Source: Catajapyx aquilonaris
Taxonomy: Eukaryota
Direction of reading: 5' to 3'
Length of the DNA stretch: 64,000 bases
Assembly (NCBI GenBank): GCA_000934665.2
Contig: JYFJ02001961.1
Span: 1 to 64,000 of the forward strand
Positions 24,401 through 43,582 of the stretch are shown here, piece by piece (the stretch's first letter is position 1; each line of letters starts with the position of its first letter). The notes below the pieces were generated by a model that saw only the letters and a list, made by a program, of their open reading frames with translations, did no database searches and was not told the DNA's origin. Both the position numbers and the translations under genes were made by a program.

Positions 24401-26641
24401 CACTGACCTTAAGCTGCCAACTAGAGGTGGGCTCGCTCTGAATGAATGAACAGGTGCTTTTTGGCCAGCCATACCTACAGTACGGTCTAATGTGTAGGGC
24501 TGGCACTTTGCCCTTTCCCTTCCTTCTTTCTCATGCTCACCTTTGGCTTGCTTCCACGCTTCTTCGCCACTTTTTTTTTGACTCTTGAAACCCTTCGCGA
24601 GGAAGGTTTCTCCTAACGCTCTGCATGCCTGCTGTCGCACTCTACTGCTTTGCTCATTCAAGATTTGCTCTAAGGCTCCCGCTCAGCATTAAAGCACATC
24701 AGGAACTACTTGCACAATATTGCTGAATGGATGGCGCCGACCTACTTACTCTGGACTATGCGTGTCCTTTTCATTCATGGTGTAAAAGTGCGTAGTCTAT
24801 CATTATACGCTGAGGTAAGGGAGCTGCAGCCAAGGGCACAACACACTTTATGCGCCTTAATCGTGGATTTCAATATTTATTCGAGAATTTATAATCAGCA
24901 TTAGCATAGAATTGTCTATTATACGTAAATTCGCTTTATGAATCGAAACAAAATAGGGTTTACTCCTTTTAAAGTAAAGAATTCTATATACCCAACCAAA
25001 ATAAGAGAAGTTGTTTATTCTCGCATAGCAGTCTCAAGGAAAATACAGGTGCAACTATACGTTCACTTCATTACTATTTATAACTAATATTTTCCCGGAA
25101 ATAACATGTCTCGCATACAGATGCTGCAGCTCTAAACATCCGCAAACACAACTTGTGCGATGCGCATATAATATGTACCGTACTACTTTGTATTAAGACG
25201 ACGCAACTGTTATCGGCCCACTTACATCAGGATTATTTTTCCACACACGGCAACAGACCATATCACTAAATTACGGTCTTCTGATCTCGAAAGTAATTAA
25301 CTGCTTTCCATATAATTTCAGGTAACAAGGATGTATAATTTGATATCTAAACAGGCCACTTTTGCAGCCAGCACTTTAATCGAATGTTCTATCCGTCTTT
25401 CATCACCAGAAGGTTAGAAAGACCATTAATGCATGGTGCTGTCCCCTGCGATGTATGACCTACTATACATGTACCCATGATGGCCTTATATGCTCTGCCT
25501 CCTTCGAATGACCCGCTGTTCCAGAGGCCAGTATGCGGCCCAACAAAGTCCACTTATCTGACACCCACGTGTGACAAGTGATAAGCGGCGGCTCGTGCTG
25601 CCCAAAATAGCCTGTATACTGTAATGACTGTAAACACGTAGGGCTCTGGACCGTATCATTGCCTGTCAAGATGGGTCCAGCAGCTGCACCATGGTTAATG
25701 TCAACCTTCATGTAGCATTAGCCATGGGAGGTATCAAAACAACAATTTGATAGTGTAGCTGTTGTTAAAGGATTAGATATTTCATAGTAACTTGCGCTAA
25801 TGAGCATTGCCAACACCTTTATTGCAACATACGCTGGACCATGCTTGGCCTGTCATTACAGTTAAATTACAATTCAATGATTTCCGGAAAAAGAAGACAT
25901 TCCCATTCATTTTGTGCAAAATATCCATTTTTATTTGATAATTCTACAGCCCTTAATATGAGTATCATTCGAATGGAATTGATCCAACAACTTCGACACT
26001 CCAGTGATTTTTGACTTATTAGAACAGGTCTCTAGTTGTTGTTCCAGCTGGCACAACCTGCATAGCCCGTCCAGAGAGGTAATTGTACCGTCATAGCCCC
26101 GAGTGAAACCAATATCTGGCCAAACAGATGAGTGTAAAAAGAATGGTCCATTGGTATGGTAGAGTATTGAAGGCATGCAGACTTTGACCGCACGTGGTGA
26201 ATCGATAGGTACGTGGGTGGGTGGGTGGGTGGTAGGGTGGGTTGAGGTCGAGGTAGCCAGGGTATTTGGTGAGAAGATGGGCGGAGCAGAAGGTTCTTGG
26301 CAGAGGTGCGCGCGGCTTCGAATCCCGCCCACCGACAAGCCCAAGAGGGCGGGTCTGCATCCAGGCGAGAGAGAGCCAAAGCAGGCAAAAGCGAGCAGGG
26401 GCAGCCGGCGATGGCCATTCCACGCCGATCACACACAGTGCATGCGTCGGACCGCCCCGATACCTCGCTGCTACGATAGGAGTAGGAGAGGAAGTCCCCC
26501 GCAGCAAAGCATCTCTACAGCATCATATTCACCACGTGCGCTCAAGTCTCTTTGGATCTTCGCCTCCAATGTCGCGTCGCCAGTGATTTGGTCAAGAAAG
26601 AGGAAGACGTGAGAGTTAGCGACGGCAGCAGCACGATCAGA

Positions 26642-27619
26642 ATGGAGGGCGAGGAGAACCACTTGGCAGACGATTACGTGAACGACTTTGTGTTGGACCA
26701 TTTGGACGAGGTAGTGAAACGCGAGATGGAGAGCCAGCGTTTGGGTAGGGTGGCGGCACAGCAACAGCAGCCGACTGGTACCACGGCAGCCACCACTTCG
26801 ACAACGTCTTCGGCACCGGCAGCCTCTTCCAACGGGCCCTCGGCTGCTGTGGCTACGGGAGCTAGCGCCAGTGTCAACGCCAGTGCTGGTGGGGGAGGTG
26901 GTGGGCCAGGTGCTGCTAGTGGTGCTGCAGGTGCTGGTGGCGCTCCTGGAGCCGGTTCTGCTGGTGCTGGTGCTGCGCCTTCAAGCGGCACCGGTGTTTC
27001 TAGTGGTGCTGGTGGTGCTAGTTCTGGCGGTGGAGGTGGCGCTCCGACAGTGTCCGTCGGTAGTCCACCAGCACAAGCGCCCCCACCCCCACCTCCTCCT
27101 CCGCCTCCTCCTGCCAGCCTGCCCCTCATGCTGATGACCGAGCAGACCACTCTTCCTGGACCGCCGCCCCTCATCCCTCACCCTACCTTGCACCAGCACC
27201 AGCACTCTCAGCATCTTCATAACCACCACCCTCACCAGCAACACCATCACCACCATCAACATCAACAGCAGCATCCTCAACAGCAGCATCCACAGCAGCA
27301 GCATCCTCAACAGCACCACCACCACCACCACCATCACCAGCATCAACAGCAACAACAACAACAGCATCAGCAGCATCAGCAACACCTGAAGGGGGTCCTG
27401 CCCCTGACCCCCAGCACCCCGGGAACCCCTCCGGATACCCCACCGTTGACCTCCCCCCATAACTGCAGCCTTCCCCCATCCCCCCCATTTGCAACTGTAC
27501 CAAACCCCTCTCACCACGCCCACACCCCTCTCGGGGGCATGGACCACCCCAAGGGCACCGCCCTCATGGACGACATGATCTGGATGGCCTCTGAAGGACT
27601 TCGTTACCGCGGACTACAG
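26642..27619 (+). CDS. tj: Large Maf coding exon 1 (transactivation motif, Gly/Ala, poly-Pro and His/Gln tracts, S/T-P cluster)
   Basis: ATG at 26642 in good context (AGAATGG); [21 protein letters not shown]; donor at 27620. Confidence 0.9.
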
Positions 27620-30600
27620 GTAAAATAATTATGACACCTTCCATGCATCTCGCATTGTCACCACCAGTCTCGACTTCCAAAGGCTTAGTTCTTTACCGGT
27701 ATCCCATACTGCGATTATCCGGTCTGCTTCTTGACAGCTTTCCTGGTTGTGACGCACCGTCCTTCGTAACGTCTGACCTGCTGACCCTTGCTGCAGAAGG
27801 ACGATTAGATACATAGTCTATCAGCTGCACATGCTACAATATTATACAATATATGCAATTGACAAGAGGTAGTTCATGTTTTGAGGGCAAAAGGCAATGG
27901 AGATAGGACGAGCAACTTTGTGCCGATTGAGAAGCGTGTGTCAGTTCGAGAATTACGTCAGGACTGGGAGGTATTACTGAGAGGAAGACGAATAGGGCTA
28001 TTGCAAAAAGGTGTCAAAGGTTACGCATCGAGTAATTAAAACAAGCTAGATTTTGTAATACATTCGTAGGGTACTATTGACAGTCATTTATGAACGGGGT
28101 TTTATCTATGAAGTGTTAAACATTATGTGCGAGTATCTTCTAACGTCTGCGCGGCTAATCTAACACTTCTATCAAATTAATGAGGGCTTATGATTGCATA
28201 ATTATTATCGCTCTTGCGTTGCATTATCGACTGGAGTGTGTGTGGGATTGCGGGGAAGAGATGGGTGATAAGTATATAACAATGTTTCGTCGGTGGGCGA
28301 TAATAATTCCGTAAGGTAAAGGGACTCGTTATTGATCAACTTATTATGAAATTTCCACCTGTTGTATACAGTATAGAATATAGATATTGGGGAGGGTTGA
28401 ACTCAATTTTAACTTAATCATATTCTCTAATCATGACGAGAGAAGGTTATTGTGGGGTTATTACGCACATTTCCGTATAAACACCTCGGCATTTCACATT
28501 CTTTATAATAACAAATAATGACATACCTGCGCCACATTTTGCAATATGGCAGCTCGAATCATCGGAGCGCATCGGAGAAAATCTGTGTACAACAGTTCGC
28601 ATCAAGTAAGGATCGCAAGTTACGATAACAATGATAAAAAAGTGGTGTCATATGAACATTTTTTTAAAAATCGGACTATACAGTATAATGTGCATTTGCA
28701 TCTGCTGCCGCTGCTAATCGAGAGTATAATACTGTATACTGGCAAACCTGGAAGGAGGCAATCTCGTGCTCGGCTGTTATCGATAATATAAGCAGCGATT
28801 GCTATAGTTAATATTCCGAGCCTTTGTAACGGTGATCGCGCCAAAGCACTAATAATATTAACTTACAAATAATAAAAATGGACAGGGAAATAAATGCAAT
28901 GATTTATATTGCCCTTTACCGCATAATGTATGAGTATATAGAATTATACGCAATCGATTATTAAATGTATAGTCACGTTTTAGGCGTTAGACACATTGTC
29001 TTATACAGTATTGGCGTGGTCATTCGCCTATTTTAACTGGTATACGTCGTGAGTATATCAGCGCACATTAATATTCGGAATTGTTTTATGGTTTTCATGA
29101 TGCTGATTTACAAGGAACACTAAACAAATTCGGCATTAATATAGGTTGAGTATAAGGTTCAGTGCAAGTGTTTTTTTCTTCTACATGAGCAGCAGTTTGT
29201 GACACTTGATTCATTTCAACACGAGCCCAGTGATCTGTTTGAACAATTTTTGTATCAATTTACTTTCTAAATATTCACACTGTTCAAATTATTCCTGGTC
29301 CAATACATCGTATTATATAGCTATCAGAGATGTACGTTGACTGCAGATATTACTGAATCCTAAATAATTATCATTATATAGCTGAAGCGCGTAAACCACA
29401 AAATGTCAGTTACTGTATATAACTTTGAATGTTTTAAAAAAACAACAGGAAAAAGCAGCAGGATAAGGAGCAAAACTAAATATTTATGCGTAATTTTATA
29501 CGTCCATTGCTTGTATGTTACACTCTTAATCATGCCGGCTGCATCACATCGATCGTATAAACACAGCGGTGAAGGCTAAACAGTTTTAAGTGGACTATTA
29601 GATTAAATCGCGCGAGTCAAGGACCAATACACCTATTTAGCCTCATCTTTAAATTGATGGTTCTTTCGGCGGTTTTTTTATTTAAATATTAAAATATCTA
29701 CAAATTAAACGGAACTCCAGTGTGTTTTGAATTAAAAACCTATAAATTGTCCATGAAAGTACATATTCGTAAAATACGGATTCATGTGTTTGTAATATGA
29801 TACCGGTATACAATAACTGTACTGTACGTGTACATCACGGTCAGTTTATCACATTTTTAGTATAGGTTCTTATGCATAAAGTCATTGCTCTTTGAGCAAG
29901 CATCAAAATGCAAGTTTTACGTCAGATTACAACAGGTCGTGTTACACCACAATCAAGAGGTGAACGAATTAGTCGTCGTGAAGACTTTTTATGGAAGCAA
30001 CGACCAGATTGAGTCGTAAAAAGGTCATTATTCCCTCCATCTCAATAATTTCACGTGTCCAATGACTTTGATGCAGGACTTTCCTCCTCTTGGATATACT
30101 GATAGCGCATTGTGCGGATAAAATTACCTGCATGTAAAAAGTCGTCATCAACAGTTCCGAACAGTAATCTACTTGTACTGTATTATATACAGGGTTGTTT
30201 CCTGGCGGCATGGTAGAACGTATGTGCTATACGAGCCAAAGTCACGGTGATGTCATACATAAGATTGGTGATGAATATGTCGAGGAGTCAACATGTACTA
30301 ATTTTCTAGTGCATATTAAAAAATAACTTTTGTTCCATTATGATGAGCCGGTACCCCGACGTATGAATCGTGATTAGAGAAACGGCATCTTCCTATTATA
30401 TGAAGCAGATCTTGCTAACAAGATTTGACCGAAATTATTATAGAGAGGGATAAGGAAGGCTTGGCTTAGCTGGTGACAGCCAATAAAAATGGAGCAATGT
30501 AATTGCAAAATCGGGCTGATAATTTTATTGAACTTACGGCAAATGGGAACCGACTGAGATCTTTATGGAGGCAAAACGGCTTTAGAGTTACCGTAGTTTT

Positions 30601-33600
30601 TTTTGGCGTGCATAAACGACACAGCCTGATAATCTGCTGACATGGTAAATACTAGCCTGTACTGTAATGCGCGTTAAGGTTCATTAATTGACATGTACTA
30701 TTGTTCAGAACAAGTTATAGTTCATACTGTATGACTTTTTGAGTTTTATGGTGCTTTTATTTATGTGCAGCATAATATCTTTAAATTGCAGTACTAAGCG
30801 TGCCTTAAGAGAAGTATTAATAAGTATTTAATTAGTAATTAAATTATATACAGAATAAGGCACTAATGCAGGCATGTAGCATTAAACCTTGGGTTTGGCA
30901 TTGTTATTATTTCTTGTCGGCAATTAACCGAATAATTTTATTAGAAACAAGAGCAAACCCAGTGTTGAGGCTAAAACTTCAGTGGCGCAACCAAACCATA
31001 TATAGGGGCGGTTGTATGAACGCAAATGAAGGAAATAACCGCGATTTTGTATAACATCCATAATGCATAATCACACAAATTCCCTTAATTTGTGCTCCTA
31101 CAATACAGTATATTTTTGGTCGAGAGAAATTTTCGCGCATTATATTTTTACACCCTCTGTAATGAGGAATCAAACTAACAAGGAAAGTTTGAAACCAAAG
31201 AAAAACCACACTGCATATAAAACCCTCGACCAGAGGCCAGCATGTCTTGGGAATAGAACGCTGAATCTGTAGAAATCGGTCACAGTAATTATACAATACG
31301 TCAAACTCTCGGTATGAGGATCATTATAAAAAGACTGTGCATGAATGTAGCCCCATACAATATGGTTTATAGATGTAGGTATTGTTGACCTGCTATTTGC
31401 AATTATTGGTGCTTATCTTTATTTATTTACGTTTGTATATGGGACTGATGAGTGCAGCTACAGAGTAAGCTTCTCGCATTGCCGATGTTGTGACATGTAC
31501 ACCGCTGCGCTGTAGGATGAAACATACGTATATAAACTTGCACATTATGTTCCATCCTACTGCTGTAGGCTTTTGGATATATGCATTTTGAATTTATCAG
31601 ACAGGTATAGACTTATTTTCTATCATGCTTTTGAGAGATAAATTATTTCAGACCTGCAAGAATTCAATGCAATATAATATAACAAATTAAAAGACGTGAA
31701 ATTGGGGACCACAAGAGATTTTGATCGAAATTGAGAGGTAAACTTTACGGTATAGGTCATGATGTGTATATGTTCTGACAGCGATGCCAGTTTTGGATAT
31801 ACAAAAGCGCAATTCCAGCTCTTATGGTAAACGTTTCAAAATATGGTCGCCCCATATGAGAAAATGGGGAGTTTAAACCCTCATACCCCAAAATAATCGA
31901 ATGCCAAAATGCAACAAGGTCAATCTGTCAATTTTTACGGAAATGCTTTTATGACATATTGTACTTCCACTGGCGGATGTCCATCAGTATAAAATGCAAG
32001 AAGAGCCGAAATGTCACTTAGTAATGCCTGAAAAAGGCCTCTAACCATCGACGGACCAAAACGCGATATCTCGATAGCAGTGACAAACGTGATTGTCACT
32101 TTAAAAGCGCGATTTGAATACACTATAAGTGAACCGCGATTTGAAAATAGCGCTGATTTTAAAGCGCGACGTGATTTTTGTATAAGCGCTACTTCTAAAG
32201 GAGATGCGTTACTTTACGATTAGAGCGTACCCCTCTGAGGAGCAGTGCTAAACCTATAGTGGAAAATAAAGTAGACTTGTGGCTCTACATGTCACCAAAA
32301 TAACTTTGACCTACGCCCTCGGGAAGTGGTCAAAAATGGCCGCTACTTCATAAGGTAGACCTAGGTGGCACGGGAGGCCAAAAAAACATTAAATGTAATT
32401 AAATATAATGTGTAATTACTCTTAGGCGAATACTATGTCTCCTGTATATCATAAATCATTCATTCATTTTATCCGTAGACGGTTTATTCTCTATATTGCC
32501 AAAGGAACGATACAATGCAAGAAGGGCCCAATTGTGAGTAGCATTAGAAGTGTTTAAATAAAATATAAATTACATGGATATTTCAAGGAAAGTGCTGTCA
32601 GGTATTCATGTTGTACATATCTGTCATTAGGTTTAGAGCACAATTGCCTACCATGAACAGAAACAGAAATAAATAGTTTATTTTTCGATTCCTTGACATT
32701 TTCTATTTTCACAATTGGGCCCTTATTGAATTGTGGTCTTAAATTGTGATACAAAGCATTGTGACTATATGATCGTTCTGTATTTTAAGTCTTCAAATGT
32801 ATTTATTAGACCAGCAACCATTGTGTATTTAGATCACAAGACAGTAAAATGCTGTTTGATGCAAGAACTAACAATAAACTCTCAAGAAGTTCAGCCTCAA
32901 GTAATTCGCAGGATCATAGTGACTTATTGCCAATGCAAACCAATGTTACGATTGTCTTATGGCGCAGGGATATATTTCAGAAGATAACGTACAACTGGTC
33001 TCGACTCGCGGGATTCATATTTGCAGACTGCAATATTGAATGCAAATAAGCTGATGGTCGCTGTTTAAATTATTACCTAGTCGGACTTAGTGCCTCATCA
33101 GTGCAGCTTGTAGTGCATGTAAGGGTCAGAAACACGGAATTACACTGAAAAGCGCATGTATATACGTTCTCAGGAATAGACGTGTCCACGAAAAAGTTGC
33201 ATTCAGAAACACGGAATTTTAAGCTATTTTTTCCCGTAGATATAGAGCGGAATATGATATGGGATAAATGGTAATTTCACTCAGAATCCTAAACAGCGCC
33301 TCGTGAGCGCCTCTGTAGCCAACTGGTGACAGCAATACTTATATTCAACACTTTAATTTACAAATTAACTTATCTAGCCTCTTTAAATATTTATTTGCCA
33401 GTATCATTACTGATTTATCCCATTCTAATACACTTTTAATGTCGCGTTATAATATTCCTGCTGACATTTCGGTGTTGCCATGTTATGCTCAGGAATCGGG
33501 AGAAATACTTGGGGTGTGTTTCTGAATGAGATTTTAGATCGACTCTCTTATTCCTCCCTAATACTCCGGGAATAGTGGGAAATAGCGACATGTTTCTGAA

Positions 33601-36600
33601 TATGACCCTTATAGTTAAATTCATGGCATCATAGTATAATGTATTTTGTGCCCTCAATTTGAAGAAGGGGATAAGGGGAAAAGTTATGGTTTGTTTATTC
33701 CAGGAACCAGATCATCAGTTAAAGAGCAGCAACAATCACGACAAATCGGTGTTGCCCTGATTGGTGCTTCCAATGAGTCTCCTGCTTTCAAACTGGTCGC
33801 TGGGGTAAACAATTCCTAACTCCGTCCCTTACCCCTTCATTACCTCTGGACTTGGGCATTGCACTACTCTGTGTACGTAATTACACACTTTAGTATGATG
33901 TATCTTCACTTACTGAAAATTAAACACGAGGGAGAGAAGTCAACTGAAAACTGCCACAATATTGAAAATATATAATGACATAAGAAATTTTTCTTTGCTC
34001 AAATTTGTGTAATTGGAATGTGACAAGGTGATTCAAAACGAACGCGTGCCACATTCTTTCTGGAATATCTCAATATCTGTACATGAAGAAAAAGCAAAAG
34101 TGATTATGGACTGATAAAGAACACATCTCATTTAAAAATTGTAGCCTAACCTCTTGATCGAGATTATCTTAATTTAGAGTGGTGTCATTTCAGTTACATT
34201 TGACCGCAATGTAATTTCCTAGTTCACTGCGGAAAATCCAAAATCTTCATTATTATAAAACTTCAAACTGTATCAGAGCTGCTGAATTATTTTGGACATT
34301 TGCCTGAAATAATATTTATTGGCTGCGTTCATTAGCTGCACGTGTCATCTCGTGAAACAATGCATAACAGTGAGAGCGACGCAATGCATTTCTTATCGTC
34401 TTTAGATAGCTGCTTATTATCGACGGTTTTTAATGCGCTGCAATCGGGCAATATAAGAGCACTACGTGAAGTTCAAGTACGACATGAGCAAAAAATATTG
34501 ACTATCGGCAACTATAATTAGCCTGATAATTATTGGCTGGATAACAAAATATACAGGGTGGTCCAGAGTCATTGTCTGCTTCTGTTGATAGTCCGGTTTT
34601 TAAAAGCATTTATTATCTAACAGACACTGTTAGAGCATATCAATATGCGCAACCTTTCTGTGCGCAGAATTGATTCAACCTTCGACCTCAGATGCCAACA
34701 GGTCACTCGCAGTATGTTATGCTAGGAAATTCCTTACACCTCGGGGCCTGAATGAATGCTTCAATTCAACCCAATATTTTGACAGCTCCTGTGGAATGTT
34801 CTTGCTTAAAAATTAACATCTTAGTATCTAAAATAATATCTCGAACCGAAACGGACAATGCGTTTCAACCACCCTGTAAGTATACCGGTATACTTGTCAA
34901 ATTTTTCCCCTTCCCTGTCCTTTTTTTTGACTGTCCTGCTCTTTTGACTCAATTTGGGCTGTCCTAGTGATTAGTCGCAAGCAAGAGCTTATGGCGCAAG
35001 TTATAATTACTGCGAAGCTGATTCTGCACGTAACTCCTGCGTTCCTGTCATTCAGAGTGTGACGGTTGTTCTGCATGTAGCACGTGGCTACAAGCTCTTC
35101 TTTTAGAGGCCCGTTAAATGCAGAGGGTGTGGAAGACCTTCGTTATAACGCGTTACATGGCGCTTGTAACACACTCCAGCAATTTTGTGTGATTGATTTG
35201 GATTAGGCCTAGAACCACAAGACGATATTTTAGGGGAGTTACTTGATAGTATGTTTTACCAGCTATAGCCATGAAAATGAAAGTATACCGACGTGTATAA
35301 TTATGATTACTAATCGGTTGTGCCACCAACTAACCTAGCCGTAATCATACATACCGTACTATTAATTGTATACGGTTCTTGGGGCATTTACAACAAGGTT
35401 TAAGGCAAAACCTGCAATGGTGCAAACGGACCTGAGCGTGACAGGGAATATCTTGCTGATTATATTACATTGCTGCACCCAGTGGTAGTCGAATGCGCAC
35501 AGCATCGTTTCTGCCAATTATAGGGAAGATGGGCCTAATGACAATCCAGTATAAATATAAGGCATAAAACATTTCCCCAACATTCTGCTCTGAAATATAA
35601 GAGCAAATCCACGAGGAATGAGTCGGTTTGACCATATAATTTCGCCTCATACCGAGGTCTTGAATGAAAGAATGCAAGGTCTTTTAGTGAACATTATTTA
35701 TACAAATCGTAGTTTGGTTATATTTTCTGTGATAGTAAGTTTTCTCATAAGTGCTATTCTCATGTTGCAATATAGTTTGTATAGGAATCAGAAAAAGGTA
35801 TTACTAAAAAGAAGGTTCAGAGACTGGAGGTGCTAGGTATATCGTTCTTTCAAGTCTTCCTCTATACGATTGTGATTAATTTTTTATATTTCGAATTTTC
35901 TGTTGCTTTATGTTTACCCTGCTACCGCAAGATTGACGTCATATGTAAGTTATTAGGGTATATTCTCTGAGAGTCGCGCTTGGCTGTTTGTTTCGCTTGG
36001 CTGTAGGATTGACAATATTGTTACCGCGGCGAATAGTTGTCATGCAAAGTACTTCAGCCTGCTTTGCAAACTACACGGAATGTCAGGTTTAAGATTAAAA
36101 TGTCACAAAATGTGCTCCATGTGGTGACCTGACAAAGTCAGGCACAGGTCAATGTTGACACCAGTCTTGACCGATGGGAATGGGTGCTGGATCACCTTGA
36201 CCAGGATTACTTTGGTGTTGATGTCCTCTTCTCCGACGAGGCCAACTGTCACATCAACGCAACAGTGAGGTTAGCCGCCATCGTGTGATACCGACATATT
36301 GTAATGTGTGTGTCGAGACTGGCAGCAATACGAGTACAGTGACCTGTACCTGAGTTCGGAAGGCCGCCGCGCCCCATTGAGCACATTTTCTGGCATTTCT
36401 ATTTGAACTGACATTCCCTATATGTATATGGGGACTTTTGCGACACCATGATGTATAATTCACCAATTCTGCGTGTCCCATACCGTCATAGCGTAGAGAA
36501 TCATTTATGGGAGCCTAGGACCATAAAAATAAATATATGTATACAGAATTGTGTATTTCGGACATATACTTTCGGGCTGCACTAATCTAACCTGCCAAAA

Positions 36601-38280
36601 TGTAAACTTTGAGGAACATGTACACATAGTAAAATGAATGTTAATTTGGTCACGGAATAAATTATGCGTAAATGTGAGATCATACAGCTTTCAGGTCAAA
36701 ACGACATAACAAGTTTTGCTATCCTTTTGATAATCCTATACATGGCATGAAACGGGACACATTAAACTACATAATATGTAGGCCCCTTATATTATACCTT
36801 CATGCTGATCTTCTGGTATAGTTGACTCACCCCGTACTCTCAATAATATGTAAAATAGGCCCATGGCAATAATTAATCAATGCTGTCAGCTGTAGCCATC
36901 ATTACGAGATCCTGGGCCTATACAGCAAGCATGAAATAATGTTGCGTATGCAAGATGCATTTTCTGCAGCGTTGTATTATACTTAAGTACTATACAACTA
37001 CAAAATAATATTTGCAAAGGACAATACACTAAAAATGAGCTTGCTGAGAAAAAGTAATTTTATTCACATTTTGCTTGCTCAGCTATTTACGCGATGTGGA
37101 ACTAGGAAAAATCTTTGGTACAGAAGAACCCCGATTATCCGACCGTCCCGATTCAGCAATAAATCTATGTTTTCTCATCAAATACTGTAATGCAGGCCTA
37201 CTACCCAATAGTTTTGTATTGCCTTAGTTAAATTTATTGTAAATATAGTACAGCAGAGTGTGTATGTAAAATACAAATACTTGACTATTTCTTACGAAAA
37301 CTATAATATTGTACATTATTTCATGTTTTTATATTTTTGTTGCGTTTCATTCAAGCTTTCTTTGCTCCTCGGATTATCCGACCTTTTCGGTTATCCGACG
37401 ATGCTCCAGTCCCTTGAATGACGGATAATAGGAGTTCTACTGTATTCGGAGTCAGTGTCAAAACAAGAACTTCTTCCAGTGAAAGAGACAGTATTGTGAG
37501 GAGTAACATAAAATGAAGCAGTATACTAAAGCAGGGCTTTGCAGAGTGAAGAGAGAAGTGAGATTCCTGTCCAAAAATGGAGTCAGAGGTGGCGCTGATA
37601 CTGTTCAGGATTGAGTTTGGATTCTAGTCTAAGCTATGACGTGGATTGCATGCTTTCAGGAACCGCTGGATCTCCGGCCCCAGTGTGGAGAGCCCCCGTT
37701 GGACGCCGTCTGGCTGACTCCTCGCGGACCACCTCAGGGGCCACCACAAGGACCTCCGCAGGGTCCTCCTCAAGGCCCACCCCAGGGCCCACCCCATGTC
37801 CAAGGCCAAGTGCATTCGCCGCAACAGCAGCAACAACAACAGGTGCACAGCCAACACAACATGGATCTGAACAGCCCCGCGTCGATTCGCTGCAGCAGCG
37901 GTGGCGACATCCTGGACGACGACCAGCTGATCTCCCTCTCCGTTCGCGAGCTGAACAAGAAGCTTCATGGGTTCCCTCGCGAGGAAGTGGTCCGCCTGAA
38001 GCAGAAGCGTCGTACTCTGAAGAACCGGGGGTACGCGCAGAACTGCCGCAGCAAGCGTCTGCAGCAGCGCCACGAGCTGGAGAGCCAGAACCGCAGCCTG
38101 CAGGTGGAGATGCAACGTCTACGACAGGAGCTGTCGCGTGTCTCGCAGGAGCGGGACATGTACAAGCAGAGGTACGACGTGCTACGCGGTACCGGCGGCA
38201 GGGACACCTCACGAGAGGTGGCCTCCGACGTATCCAGCTCCACGCCCAGCAATCCCAGCTCGCCCGAGTTTTACCTGTGA
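26642..38280 (+). CDS. tj: Large Maf bZIP transcription factor (traffic jam / MafA-like), 2 coding exons, 532 aa
   Basis: N-terminal large-Maf motif [21 protein letters not shown]; extended homology region plus b[21 protein letters not shown]...[22 protein letters not shown]-terminus SPEFYL; phase-0 intron CAG|GTAAAA ... TTTCAG|GAA (27620-37659). Confidence 0.93.
32522..32724. mobile_element. Probable MITE (16-bp inverted repeats)
   Basis: AAGGGCCCAATTGTGA (32522-32537) and TCACAATTGGGCCCTT (32709-32724). Confidence 0.55.
33123..33608. mobile_element. PIF/Harbinger-like MITE
   Basis: TAA|GGGTCAGAAACACG ... ATGTTTCTGAATATGACCC|TTA with internal CAGAAACAC repeats in both orientations. Confidence 0.5.
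34554..34876. mobile_element. Tc1/mariner-type MITE in the Maf intron
   Basis: TA|CAGGGTGGTCCAGAGTCATTGTC ... GACAATGCGTTTCAACCACCCTG|TA. Confidence 0.65.
37121..37442. mobile_element. pogo/Tigger-like MITE in the Maf intron
   Basis: TA|CAGAAGAACCCCGATTATCCG ... CGGATAATAGGAGTTCTACTG|TA with internal TTATCCGAC repeats. Confidence 0.8.
37660..38280 (+). CDS. tj: Large Maf coding exon 2 (PLDLR motif, GPPQ repeats, EHR-bZIP)
   Basis: Maf basic region NRGYAQNCR and leucine zipper; stop TGA at 38278-38280. Confidence 0.95.
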
Positions 38281-38391
38281 CGCCAGAACCCACGCCTCAA
38301 TCCGCGCCTCAACCTGCGTCTACAAACGCGTCCGAACCACCACCGCCCTCGCCCAAACCATCCGCTTCCTCACTATCCTCCGGAGCTTTAA
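38281..38391 (+). other. Putative stop-codon readthrough extension of the Maf protein (36 aa)
   Basis: TGA-C context; in-frame RQNPRLNPRLNLRLQTRPNHHRPRPNHPLPHYPPEL then TAA; synonymous variation among the NPRL repeats. Confidence 0.6.
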
Positions 38392-40561
38392 AGTCAACCC
38401 TCCCATGTATAGGTCGGGACGCTCACGTTCAGACATAACCAAAACTCTCTTCCATCACCGGGACACTCGTGTCACGACTGCCTTCCTGTCTGCCGCTCTA
38501 GGTTTCAGCTGGAGCGAGCGGGAACATTGCGAGACATTGCTCGCACGGGACGAAATTGCTCGTTCGTGATAAAATTGCCAAGTTGGAAGCAGCAGGTGTC
38601 GCTTGACACTTGAAGCCGCGGAGTCCGATATCAAAGTGTAGGTAAAGTACAGCTGGCAGTCGTGACATGACATGGCATGGAGTGGGGGAGAGTATGTTGG
38701 ATCCCTGGGACGAAGGTTGAAAGGAGGGGGCCGAAAAGGCAGATTAATCCGGGAGTTTTTAGCCGCACTTCTTGGCAGGAATGGAGGAAGCGGCCAGTGC
38801 TGCTAGCACCAACGTCAGTCGCTGGGGCCGCCTTGCTGCAGCAGCTGGCACCCTTCCAGCATGCCTCCAGCATGCCGCACCAGACCTGACACTGCTCTGA
38901 GACCCAACCCGCTACCGCACTCGACTGTACATAAACATTACGGGGGAAAGAAAAAGTGACCCCCATTCCTGAACATGTAATCTCAATTGCGCGGACGAAT
39001 CTTGGACCTGCCGGACGTGTTGTGCATTTTCATCTCTAAAGGACACCTGTGTTGAACTGTGAGACTTTATTGCTGAGTCAAAGTGCTCTCTACCGACTAT
39101 CAGTGGTTTGCATAGGCTCATTATGATGCTCCGTAGGCGTTGCTGTGGCTAGACATACAGTCTGCAATTTGTAAAACTCACCTAATCATCCCCAGTCCAA
39201 ATTATTCAGTACCCCCTCAATTACTATTTCTTAGCTGATTAGATGATGATGATAATAATATTATTAATAATAACAACAATAATAATAGTAAGTAATCATA
39301 ATGCATTTTGAAGACCTTATTATGTAAGTACCTGGCTTGAAAAGTATTGTCTGTTTCTGTCGACACAAGACGTTTACTCTAACGTACAAAACAAACGAAA
39401 TTAGTGATTGGGGAAAACGCTATGGACGAAACCTATATGAAAAAATTTTATTAACTGGTTCTATGTCATGCGTATGAATTCGGAGCAATTGAGAATATTC
39501 TAGTGGTGTGTGTTCCACTTTTAGCATTTAGGCCTCTTTGTGATAGGTCCTTGTTATCGATGTCAAGTGCTTACGGCGGCTCAAGTAGCCCTCCACTTTT
39601 TGTTTACTTTTTTCTACGTTTTGCCCTTTCTGAACAGAGAAAGGTATTTTTTTTAAATATCCAGTAGCTGAACAATATGATTCATCCAGACATGTCCCCT
39701 GTCCCATTCACTGCCTCAAATACACGGATCATATTTGTTGGTTTATACGGTAACAAAACTGTTCAGTTTTTTTCCCATATTTTGTGTGTATAATTAATGA
39801 TAATTGATTACCCGCGCGGATCTGGCTATTAAAACACACTCATACTATAGCTATACCTGAGGAGTTATATGCGACTTTTATATCCACACACAATTGGGGT
39901 ACCATCTCCAGTGGACATATAGTCTCTTCACACCTTTTGTTTTGTTTACTTGCATTAAAATAGGAGCCTGCCAAGCAACGATTATTGTACATAGCAAAGG
40001 GTATTTTCAAGAGCATTGTTTCCAGAAAAATCATGTTATAGGTGGTGTGAACTACATGTTATTCATAGTTGTCTGAAGTAGCATTCCAGAGAATGTAACT
40101 TTGTTAGACTGCCCTGTTTTATCTCTCTCTCTCTCTCACTCACTCTCTCTCTCTCTCCTTCTCCAACCCCCACCCTTTCCCCCACCCAATCTCTCTTTTT
40201 CCTCAAAAAAACGTCCGCAATGAAGAAAGTTGGTTCAGTTTCCGATTGGCTCACAGGGTTTTCCAGAACTGAAAAAAAAGACAGCTAGGGAGAGAGGGAG
40301 AGACGTTGCGATGAGAAAAAGTTGTCCCCTCGGTGGGTCACTGCTGCTCACTTGTAGATGACTCGTAAAACAGCGCTTATTTGTTTGCCCCTTCCGCGCA
40401 CAACTGCCTGCAGATAGAGCCGAATCAAAGGTGGCCATGGCAGATTGCTCATTCAGTGCGGCGGACTTTTCAGCGTTTGCATTCCAACTGGCAGTCTATT
40501 ATTATTAATCTTCATGTATAACCCAGAAGACACGCCCTCATATGTTATTGTCGCCTGTGCC

Positions 40562-40738
40562 AATAAAGCGCAACCCTTTGTTATTCGTTTGTTCAAGGTG
40601 ACAGGGCAGAACATGATCTATAGCACTCAAAGATTTTTTGGTTTTTTTTGCCAACTTGTTAACTATTATCATACAGATGTAATTTCACCCCCAACCCCCC
40701 CTCCACGCTTTCACGTTAGTAGAAAATGCAGAAATAAA
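40562..40738 (+). terminator. Candidate polyadenylation signals of the Maf gene
   Basis: AATAAA at 40562 and 40733, the second followed by T/GT-rich sequence; would imply a 3' UTR of about 2.3-2.5 kb. Confidence 0.35.
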
Positions 40739-43582
40739 GCACTGCCCCATTGTTATCTGGTATTGTTCTTTCTTCAATTTGATGCCTTGCTCTGGGATTC
40801 GATTGGTTTATTGGGAAGGGTTGCAAAATGGGGAGTTTATTTTTAGGATGAGGGGAACAAAACAACAACTTCGAGGACATCGACGCTGTGTGTGAGCAGG
40901 AGTTCAGGTAAGGCAAAGAGTTATTAATTGCGCAGAATTGAGACTTGGCCGGACCTAAATGCAGTATTTTTGGTAAAGGTTGTGACAGATGTGTTGGCAG
41001 AAAAGGATATTAGCTCTACTGACAAGGGCACTTTGTGAGAGTAGAGAATTAGCTTATCATAAATAAGTTATCGCCAATCTGGGAAAACTATTATTTTAAT
41101 TAGTGTTGTGAACACCAATTGAATTCAACTATCAAATCACGTGATATCATGTTGATTTCCTATTATTAATTGGATTCGCCTGCTAGGATTTCCATTCAAT
41201 ATACGAATAATATTGTATGAGGCATTTTCTGTCGTCTCCAAAAATGAATGGGGGAGCCAAGTGTAGTTGCAGGCCCATATTACTCGTAGAAGTGTGCTAG
41301 GAAAAGGCAACGTTCAGATTTACATCCTACTATACACTAAACGGACAATGCCCTTTATGATCACCATAAGCAGCATTTCCAATTCCAAACTGTCGCAATT
41401 TACTCGTACCAAAAATCAACACCATTTTGGCCCGGACTGTACGCTGTAAGTGGTCCGGAAGTAATGACGATTACTAATGGTTATTCATTGATGAGCGTAG
41501 AATTCTGCAATCACAACCAAATTCTCACCGCATTGCATCCATGCAAATCACATTAGTGTCAATTGCATGCACCACAGCAAACAGCACAGGCTGGCGAAAT
41601 TTTGCCCACCAAAATTCTACCCCCAACTTTTTGGTACCTCCCAGAAGAATCTGTAATAAAATCACCACGACCCATTCTGTTCCAGCCGAGGAACGTACCC
41701 TGGTGGCTGGGCAATAGACTACGTGCCTAGATCTATGCGCCAGTAAATGAGCAATAATTTATTATCAGGGATGGTCTCGTTGCAGAGGGCAAAGAGTGTC
41801 CAAAATGGAGGCATCCACAAGTCCAGTAAAGTCCAAAGCGCTATCATCATTGTAGGACGATTAAAATGCTGTTGGACACATGCCCACGGACAAGCTTATT
41901 TCGGAAGGCTTATTAATAGGGGCGGCTGGCAAAAAGCGTAGGCTAAGAATAGGAAAGAGTGGTTTAAAAATGGTGGGCCTAGTTGGCAAATGGCGATGAA
42001 GCCTGCTGCTGCTTGTAGGACGCCAAAAAACCCTCCTTGTAGCTAGGCCACCACTAAATGTTTATGGTCCACCGAATGGGCCTGCGTGGGTTGAATGATG
42101 CCAAACACACGTGTTTCAGTGACCACCATCAATTTAGGAGCGTCCCTGGAGCATCCTGAGCAGATAACGGCAGCAATTGTGTCGAGAGAGTGCCGTAGGG
42201 GACGCCATGTAGATGGAGTGATATGACACGAACAGTGCCCATGTTTTAAAAAAGAACACGATTTGAACACTTGTTGCCCTTATTCATTTGTTGTGTAGAT
42301 GTATGCTTTAAAATGTTGCTATGAAATACTAGACAAGTTGGTTACTGTCTTTGTCCTCGTGTGAGGCATGCCTTTGCAGATAAGTGACAGAGGATAAGAC
42401 TAAATATAGAGTCCGGGATGGCGGGCACAGTATCGTTACATTGAAGGTCAAGTTGGGATGTTCAAAGTCAGGAGCGTGCAGGAAATTGCATACTGACCCG
42501 ATTTTTTTTTGCATTTCCTTGACATTACGTACAGTAGACTACTAGATCTTCAGTTAGATTCGGGATTGCTATTGGGAATGTGGAGACTTTTCTTGAAAGT
42601 TTACAGACTGCTTTGTATGTAACAATACATGCTATTATTCCTGTTGGCAGATTTACTGATGTGGTTTTGTAATCGGCAGATCAGTGAATGTTGCAAACAA
42701 GTGCCGGCAAAGTCTGATCGATCCATTCACATTTTCTTGCTGTTTATTCGGTATCGAATAATTTATTTTAAAAAATCTCATCAGCACATTGCTAATAAAC
42801 CTCCTGATCAAACAACGACGGAAGTTCCAGCAATAACTGTTACACAGGTAGTTTAAAAAAAGCACATTTAGGAATAAAACCCTCACATTCCAATCTGGGA
42901 TCCCGGTTCTAATCCCGGAGCTGGCAGTGTTTCTCACCGTCAGTAAGGCCAAATTTTTTGCCAGGTATTCAGGTACCGCTCCTTGGGTAAGGCCCATCCC
43001 ACATGCGTTCAAAACAGTGTCTTTTTTAACCTTGATATATGGATACACTGTTATAACCCCCCCAGTGTTTCGGATGTGAGGAGCACAATTTGCCAAAGGC
43101 TATCAGAGCTATATGCAGGGCACCAGGAAACCCGATAAAGAGTCTGACGCCAAGTAATCATCACGATCATCTATTGCACGGTGGGGCATTCGAGACGAAA
43201 GGAAGGGTGGAATAGCAGTCAATGCAGACAGCGAGTCGTGATTTCGAATTTTGAAAACCCGCATATATACGGTATGGTGTGATCGGTTCCCAGAAAACTC
43301 TATGGGAAGACAAGGCGCATAGGATAAAAGGGTTCGTATCTCTCCTCCTGGCATATTATATATGTGACACGATCTGAACAAAGGGAAGGAGACAGGAGGG
43401 AACGCCCTCGTCCTATTTGTTCCCTTTGGCTCCCACTCTTGCGCTTTCCCCAAACCGTCATTATGTGGCCCGATTGATAGAAAAGGCGCGGCATCACAGC
43501 CAGACTTCCCCACCAAAAAATGCCAACGATTCTGACGATAACTGTTATTTACGGTCGGACCAAAAAAGAACCGCGATTTTTC

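Follow-up and report, generated by a model that had tools for sequence, protein, structure and literature searches.

Candidate stop-codon readthrough at the traffic jam orthologue of Catajapyx aquilonaris and a conserved TGA-C stop context among pancrustacean-like large Maf genes

Does translation of the large-Maf/traffic jam (tj) gene of Catajapyx aquilonaris always end at its first stop codon, or do some ribosomes continue past it? The question is raised by the window analysed here, a 64,000-nt stretch of DNA (contig JYFJ02001961.1, positions 1 to 64,000 of the forward strand), in which the tj reading frame stops at a TGA followed by C and then remains open for a further 36 codons. An earlier note, made from the letters of this DNA alone, had proposed that the stop is read through, that the extension carries codon-level evidence of this, and that the event may be an old arthropod feature. 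We conclude, with modest confidence, that the stop in the window probably corresponds, by orthology, to one already known to be read through and that some ribosomes would add a 36-residue tail at it. This conclusion is carried by the context of the stop in related genes and by post-stop coding constraint seen in other lineages, more than by the extension in the window.

The frame that encodes the bZIP_Maf domain ends ...SPEFYL TGA C and continues for 36 sense codons to a TAA, as the earlier note had described. The first stop, with its C at +4 (TGA-C, 38278..38281, + strand), is followed by CGC CAG. The candidate readthrough extension (38281..38388, +) encodes RQNPRLNPRLNLRLQTRPNHHRPRPNHPLPHYPPEL; it is 48% C and rich in Arg, Pro, Asn, His and Leu, and is closed by a second in-frame stop with an A after it (TAA-A, 38389..38391, +). 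The gene itself, as judged from its domain, conserved blocks and C-terminus, is orthologous to traffic jam of Drosophila, which encodes a large Maf factor of the bZIP class. The Pfam domain bZIP_Maf (PF03131) was matched at profile positions 1–91 of 92 with an E-value of 1.9e-30, and tblastn searches with five orthologues aligned to positions 26642–26770 and 37567–38277. The N-terminal activation region and the EPLDLRP block, common to arthropod large Mafs, are present (tblastn; invariant columns of alignment A1), and the sequence directly before the stop, ...NPSSPEFYL, is the canonical tail found in 117 of 193 retrieved relatives. The closest proteins are only ∼70% identical to the window Maf, over its conserved half, and in a tree of bZIP domains the gene clusters with those of branchiopod crustaceans (SH-like support 0.84).

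Drosophila tj is intronless, stops at UGA-C and has a 44-codon extension, and its readthrough amounted to ∼7–11% in S2 reporters and was abolished by UAA-A (PMC9226519). The readthrough isoform, Tj-TR, is neural-specific in vivo and changed readthrough led to phenotypes (Karki et al., NAR; PMC9226519); it has a demonstrated in vivo role in neuronal integrity and gonad function in flies, which few such genes have. The earlier note's description of Drosophila tj as a validated readthrough gene with a UGA-C stop is thus upheld by both reporter and in vivo data. A 2026 preprint places tj in tier 1, with a score of 14/15, and in its introduction dates extensive readthrough to the time after the divergence from centipedes (PMC13278127). 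More generally, old readthrough genes are enriched in a TGA first stop and a C at +4, and they retain the stop even as the extension evolves rapidly in sequence and in length (PMC5100048).

The stop context of tj was compared across 69 Maf-encoding metagenome loci, reading the first in-frame stop after each match. Loci were placed by their best named hit and by the bZIP tree, and the taxon labels used below are deduced from similarity and from that weakly supported tree. TGA-C was the first in-frame stop at 20 of the 69 loci, one of which (L015) is probably an intronic stop. At the terminal stop it was found at 15/15 pancrustacean-like loci and at 1/29 other Maf-like loci, a difference with a Fisher P of 7e-11 if the loci, which are not phylogenetically independent, are treated as such. 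The 15 comprise Blattodea-like (L001–L005), hemipteran-like (L006), chironomid-like (L007), mayfly-like (L008) and ant-like (L036) loci, three that fall near Artemia with weak support (L013, L024 and L027), and the springtail-like L022, L026 and L029, whose best named hits are to Folsomia (51%), Allacma (48%) and Orchesella (40%). Four loci whose frame is cut before the end of the zipper (L014, L015, L048 and L060) stand outside this count, as do 21 loci that lack the core basic-region motif and could not be placed on the tree, three of which (L051, L058 and L059) have TGA-C. The cladoceran-like L014 and L015 were dropped as stop comparisons, their terminal exon not being contained in the locus.

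The two loci of the chelicerate clade (support 0.96), both among the 29, have other stops, TGA-T at L009 and TAA-T at L011. Since neither has TGA-C, ‘pancrustacean’ describes the data better than ‘arthropod’, on two loci only. The suggestion of an old arthropod feature therefore survives in narrower form: the context is uniform among pancrustacean-like loci and, as set out below, coding constraint follows the stop in three other lineages; the chelicerate-like loci do not have TGA-C, and the support, which is real, comes from relatives and not from the window. The likeness continues for two codons past the stop, the extension beginning CGN CAR (Arg-Gln) in the window, L007, L022, L026 and L027. 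Extension lengths across the TGA-C loci vary from 4 to 110 codons and do not exceed the open stretches of the other frames; length was rejected as evidence of readthrough for this reason. The stop context of tj, together with a coding extension in several lineages, is on these comparisons conserved well beyond Drosophila, and this is a stronger and newer result than the extension of the window itself.

What follows the stop is under coding constraint in three other lineages. The clearest case is that of the springtail-like L022 (∼2004–2084) and L026 (∼1951–2031), whose 25 post-stop codons specify the same peptide and differ at 11 nucleotides, all in third positions. The chance of such a pattern is (1/3)^11, or ∼6e-6. 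The flanks show no such agreement, with ungapped identities of 23/75 nt before the first stop and 21/75 nt after the second, and the second stops themselves differ (TAA and TGA). This pattern is a textbook readthrough signature. The extensions of L013 (from 558) and L024 (from 1294) are of 110 and 22 codons and have in common their first two residues, their last ten residues and a TAG stop; the 88 codons by which they differ form a tandem repeat in L013, in frame and with a Tyr/Asn/Glu/Pro/Lys-rich unit. Their last ten codons differ at six nucleotides, five in third positions and one in a first position (CGC/AGA), none of them changing an amino acid. In the third pair, the tail of the database protein P0094 past ...SPEFYL matches the 17-residue extension of L007 at 13 positions and has its second TGA at the same place, the whole proteins being 64% identical. 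P0094 was apparently called with TGA read as Trp, across two TGA codons. As it keeps the chironomid-like tj extension, miscalled proteins of this kind offer a means of recovering readthrough extensions.

The 6–9-codon extensions of L001–L005, L006 and L027, which represent three distinct lineages, all end in frame with Trp-Ser-stop (TGG AGY TRA). This ending may be that of an ancestral insect-type extension, or it may be a conserved RNA motif. The bases after it are GCC G in L001–L005 and L006 and GCG C in L027.

Within the window, the extension was scored with a codon model trained on the 532 codons of the tj gene itself. Frame 0 scored −8.1, compared with −31.2 and −18.9 for the remaining frames; the corresponding scores for exon 2, which rank the frames alike, were 9.7, −28.2 and −13.4, and 36-codon windows of the 3′ untranslated region (UTR; 38392–39100, any frame) had a mean of −21.5 (sd 11.0). 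The GC content by codon position was 0.81/0.47/0.61 in the extension and 0.71/0.45/0.74 in exon 2, and was flat in the UTR. Codon usage in the extension thus lies between that of coding sequence (CDS) and UTR, and the window's own signal is intermediate, being suggestive but short of decisive.

The extension also contains the 12-nt repeat to which the earlier note had drawn attention, three units encoding NPRL, NPRL and NLRL (38287..38322, +). Its details were confirmed: the first two units are distinguished by a pair of synonymous third-position changes, and the third has two further synonymous changes and one P>L. The self-match at a lag of 12 is 18/24, for which shuffles give P = 0.0003 with the lag preset and P = 0.09 over all lags of 6 to 24. 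Four of the five variable columns are at third codon positions (P = 0.01, post hoc). Neither Tandem Repeats Finder nor a general repeat search reported this repeat, which is too short for either. The codon-level evidence claimed earlier for the extension is weak, consisting of a repeat of 36 nt, a P of 0.01 that is post hoc, and an intermediate codon usage. Frame 0 does outscore the other two, and its GC pattern is CDS-like.

Several observations weigh against readthrough at the window's stop. The open length is not significant, since dinucleotide shuffles gave at least 36 open codons in 34% of cases with a 420-nt context and in 51% with a 150-nt context, and the remaining two + frames, followed from the same position, run through 95 and 51 codons without a stop. 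For these two reasons the 36-codon openness is no evidence, as the caveat in the earlier note had anticipated. The extension score of −8.1 is below the CDS mean of 9.7 (sd 7.5), and ∼14% of the 36-codon 3′ UTR windows score at least as well. The repeat amounts to 36 nt that were picked after inspection, and the coding signal of the extension was judged from single-sequence proxies, which are intermediate. Beyond its first two residues, Arg-Gln (CGN CAR), the extension is similar to that of no other lineage. No stable stem-loop lies just 3′ of the stop: 38278–38400 has a folding z of −0.94, 35/200 shuffles folding as well, so that the stimulatory 3′ structure for which the earlier note proposed a search is missing there. 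A splice junction described below removes the stop and the whole extension. From the literature, a Drosophila tubulin cassette given UGA-C showed no readthrough (PMC9226519), and so the tetranucleotide alone is no guarantee of leakage. In Supplemental Data S1 of Jungreis 2016, tj-RB (44 codons, TGA-C) is placed in the class ‘Comparison’ and not ‘Ancient’, and the Anopheles orthologue AGAP010030 is marked as not stop-orthologous and is unflagged for readthrough (PMC5100048); published work therefore does not treat tj as a case of ancient readthrough. Our literature search, which covered the Jungreis 2016 supplement other than its file 1, found in the accessible text no suggestion that readthrough of tj is shared by animals other than Drosophila.

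Among the listed database matches, no protein reaches into the extension. When the readthrough product (TGA as X) was compared with a collection of 5.8 billion proteins, 0/120 listed matches covered more than 85% of it and none passed the stop. For the tail joined to its extension (79 aa, table 4) there were no matches at E ≤ 0.001 among 1.84 billion representatives; since gene callers ordinarily end a protein at TGA, this result carries no information.

The splice junction, of which the earlier note was unaware, comes from the contigs of run X5 (second sample), which were compared over 26200–39800 and which give no isoform ratios. Record 14, a contig of 1951 nt, joins 38033–38169 directly to 38777–39800. 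A 2-nt ambiguity at the 38169/38777 joint permits a GT at 38172 and an AG at 38777–38778, and thus an alternative intron of 607 nt of the GT..AG type (38172..38778, +). The resulting 38171/38779 junction takes out 35 C-terminal codons along with the TGA stop and the entire extension. In their place the frame would run through 38779..38806 (+) as an alternative C-terminal coding end: the third base of a split Arg codon, eight codons for NGGSGQCC at 38780–38803, and a TAG at 38804–38806. The 607-nt gap may instead reflect a 607-bp deletion allele. A further 790 letters of record 14 remain beyond 39800 and would end near 40590, just past an AATAAA at 40562–40567; the two together fit an mRNA 3′ end. 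The 3′ UTR of the unspliced form would accordingly extend over 38392..40590 (+), ∼2.3 kb, with its end at ∼40590 placed by this fit. Positions 38170–38776 and the introns are uncovered in the listed X5 contigs; these blanks were not used as evidence. The spliced-out codons end in the deeply conserved ...NPSSPEFYL, and therefore the unspliced, stop-containing mRNA must also be translated. Inside the alternative intron there is a 16-nt inverted repeat (38467–38482/38655–38670; 94% complementary, 172 nt apart), and the longer interval 38278–38700 folds somewhat better than its shuffles (z −2.09).

Three other accounts of the locus have to be set against readthrough. The plainest is ordinary termination, with a C-rich 3′ UTR that is open by chance, an inherited TGA-C, and leakage that is at background level and without consequence. 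It has to treat TGA-C at 15/15 loci against 1/29 as something other than selection on stop context, which is hard to do, and the coding constraint after the stop in three other lineages runs counter to it, as do the superiority of frame 0 and a GC periodicity resembling that of the CDS. In its favour are the properties of the extension itself: openness at the chance level with all three frames open, a codon score within the range of UTR windows (14% being as good), no likeness to other extensions past two codons, and no listed database protein (0/120) reaching into it. We consider ordinary termination unlikely here, if deserving of serious weight.

A less probable account, to which we give little credence, is that the stretch acts mainly as RNA, either as the alternative intron 38172–38778 or as a regulatory 3′ UTR, so that splicing and not the ribosome chooses the isoform; the repeat and the period-3 appearance would then be by-products of a 12-nt duplication. 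The GT..AG joint of X5 record 14, in a contig that extends to a position fitting the AATAAA at 40562–40567, agrees with this, as do the 16-nt inverted repeat inside the intron and the z of −2.09 for 38278–38700. Some annotated arthropod Mafs, such as P0014, P0028 and P0030, also have a different ending a short way past the zipper. However, the joint comes from one contig, for which the 607-bp deletion allele is an alternative source, and the 35 codons that splicing would remove end in the conserved ...NPSSPEFYL, which requires that the unspliced mRNA be translated. Such RNA functions are in any case compatible with readthrough and not exclusive of it. That the UGA is decoded as selenocysteine (Sec) is exceedingly improbable. 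The idea draws only on the stop being UGA with a frame that continues; no SECIS element or other Rfam family was found at threshold in 37600–41200, the single match being to a miRNA model (20 bits, where the gathering score is 82), and the orthologue extensions have no conserved position fitting a Sec-dependent domain. A stimulatory 3′ structure of the hdc or dfr type is not required for tj-type readthrough (PMC9226519). Given that neither a stem-loop nor a SECIS was found, the stop context would on its own be the signal, as in fly tj.

Readthrough, the reading that we prefer, would proceed as follows. The open reading frame (ORF) of the unspliced mRNA would end at UGA-C, a weak termination signal common to all the sampled pancrustacean-like orthologues. 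In a minority of cases the UGA would be decoded by a near-cognate tRNA and not recognised by eRF1, and the ribosome would proceed in frame for 36 codons to the UAA-A at 38389–38391. The product would be a Maf isoform with a basic, Pro/Arg/Asn/His-rich and probably disordered tail directly after ...NPSSPEFYL, and the spliced form, without stop and tail, would supply a third C-terminus. The anatomy of the sequence, the orthology, the conservation of the stop context and the post-stop coding constraint in three other lineages are established by the comparisons above; we infer that readthrough takes place in the Catajapyx gene, and the same reserve applies to its level, to any tissue control and to any function of the 36-residue tail.

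A wider and more tentative proposal, possible though short of probable, is that tj readthrough, far from being new in the Drosophila clade, predates the split of springtails, insects and branchiopod-like crustaceans and was retained thereafter, with UGA-C (often UGA-CGN-CAR) held and the peptide replaced by lineage, and that in the window it stands beside splicing around the stop, for three C-termini in all. If this is true, the leaky stop is conserved from springtail- and crustacean-like animals to flies and tj readthrough is hundreds of millions of years old. Examples of such lineage-replaced tails would be those of 6–17 residues in insect-like loci (three of them Trp-Ser-ended), 25 in springtail-like loci, 110 in L013 and 36 in the window. 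Selection would then keep the signal rather than the peptide, making tj a good case in which to study the role of a tail whose sequence can vary freely. For the window alone the gain would be modest, that of one more readthrough candidate.

The rest of the gene has a simple structure of two exons on the + strand (CDS 26642–27619 and 37660–38277). Coding exon 1 (26642..27619, +) comprises 326 codons from the Met, to which tblastn with orthologue N-termini aligned at 26642–26770, and lies inside the ORF 26486–27628. It contains long low-complexity runs of Gln, His, Pro, Gly and Ala. A GT donor at 27620, directly 3′ of this exon, opens an intron of ∼10 kb of the GT...CAG type (27620..37659, +), which was placed by its donor and acceptor context and by an X5 contig whose match begins at 37657 (contig position 88). 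The acceptor reads ...tttcag immediately before exon 2, which begins at 37660. High-copy repeats occupy ∼31648–33009 and 37096–37549 of this intron, where the depth of run X1 contigs is 1000–2600, compared with ∼30 elsewhere. Coding exon 2 (37660..38277, +) has 206 codons and carries a (GPPQ)n repeat, bZIP_Maf at ∼37912–38184 and the C-terminal ...NPSSPEFYL. The (GPPQ)n is encoded by an in-frame tandem repeat at 37726–37793 with a period of 12/24 nt (Tandem Repeats Finder). The GC content of the tj exon and UTR is 0.52–0.62, compared with 0.33–0.40 in the flanks. Pfam scanning of 35 of the 50 window ORFs of at least 110 aa (the other 15, which overlap the Maf exons, being excluded) gave no further domain, and the scan of window ORFs otherwise yielded one below-threshold low-complexity match, on exon 1.

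Readthrough contexts of the UGA-CGG and UGA-CUA type are found in viral and cellular genes. The tj loci resemble these in having UGA followed by C, and several have CGG or CGC after the stop; the window differs from them with CGC CAG. In their extensions, the tj loci are like the neuronal extensions of a recent preprint, in which a conserved core is followed by an extension whose likeness is confined mostly to shallow clades, 82/87 genes showing it only within Diptera (bioRxiv 10.64898/2026.07.13.738141). That study took only extensions of more than 50 residues, and tj is not among the genes reported in its accessible text. The pattern also recalls the ‘Ancient’ genes of Jungreis et al. 2016 (PMC5100048), since the stop of tj is kept while its extensions diverge and vary in length; the deep conservation of tj seen here among metagenome loci is absent from the accessible part of that catalogue.

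The closest known system is Drosophila tj itself. The gene in the window differs from it in having a 10-kb intron, an extension of 36 codons and an alternative intron, supported by a contig, whose splicing eliminates the stop. Translation of the fly extension has been demonstrated, whereas that of the tail in the window is predicted. The likeness between the two lies in the orthologous large Maf, the ...SPEFYL end, the UGA-C at the same position and an extension of a few dozen residues, which in the fly is disordered (PMC9226519).

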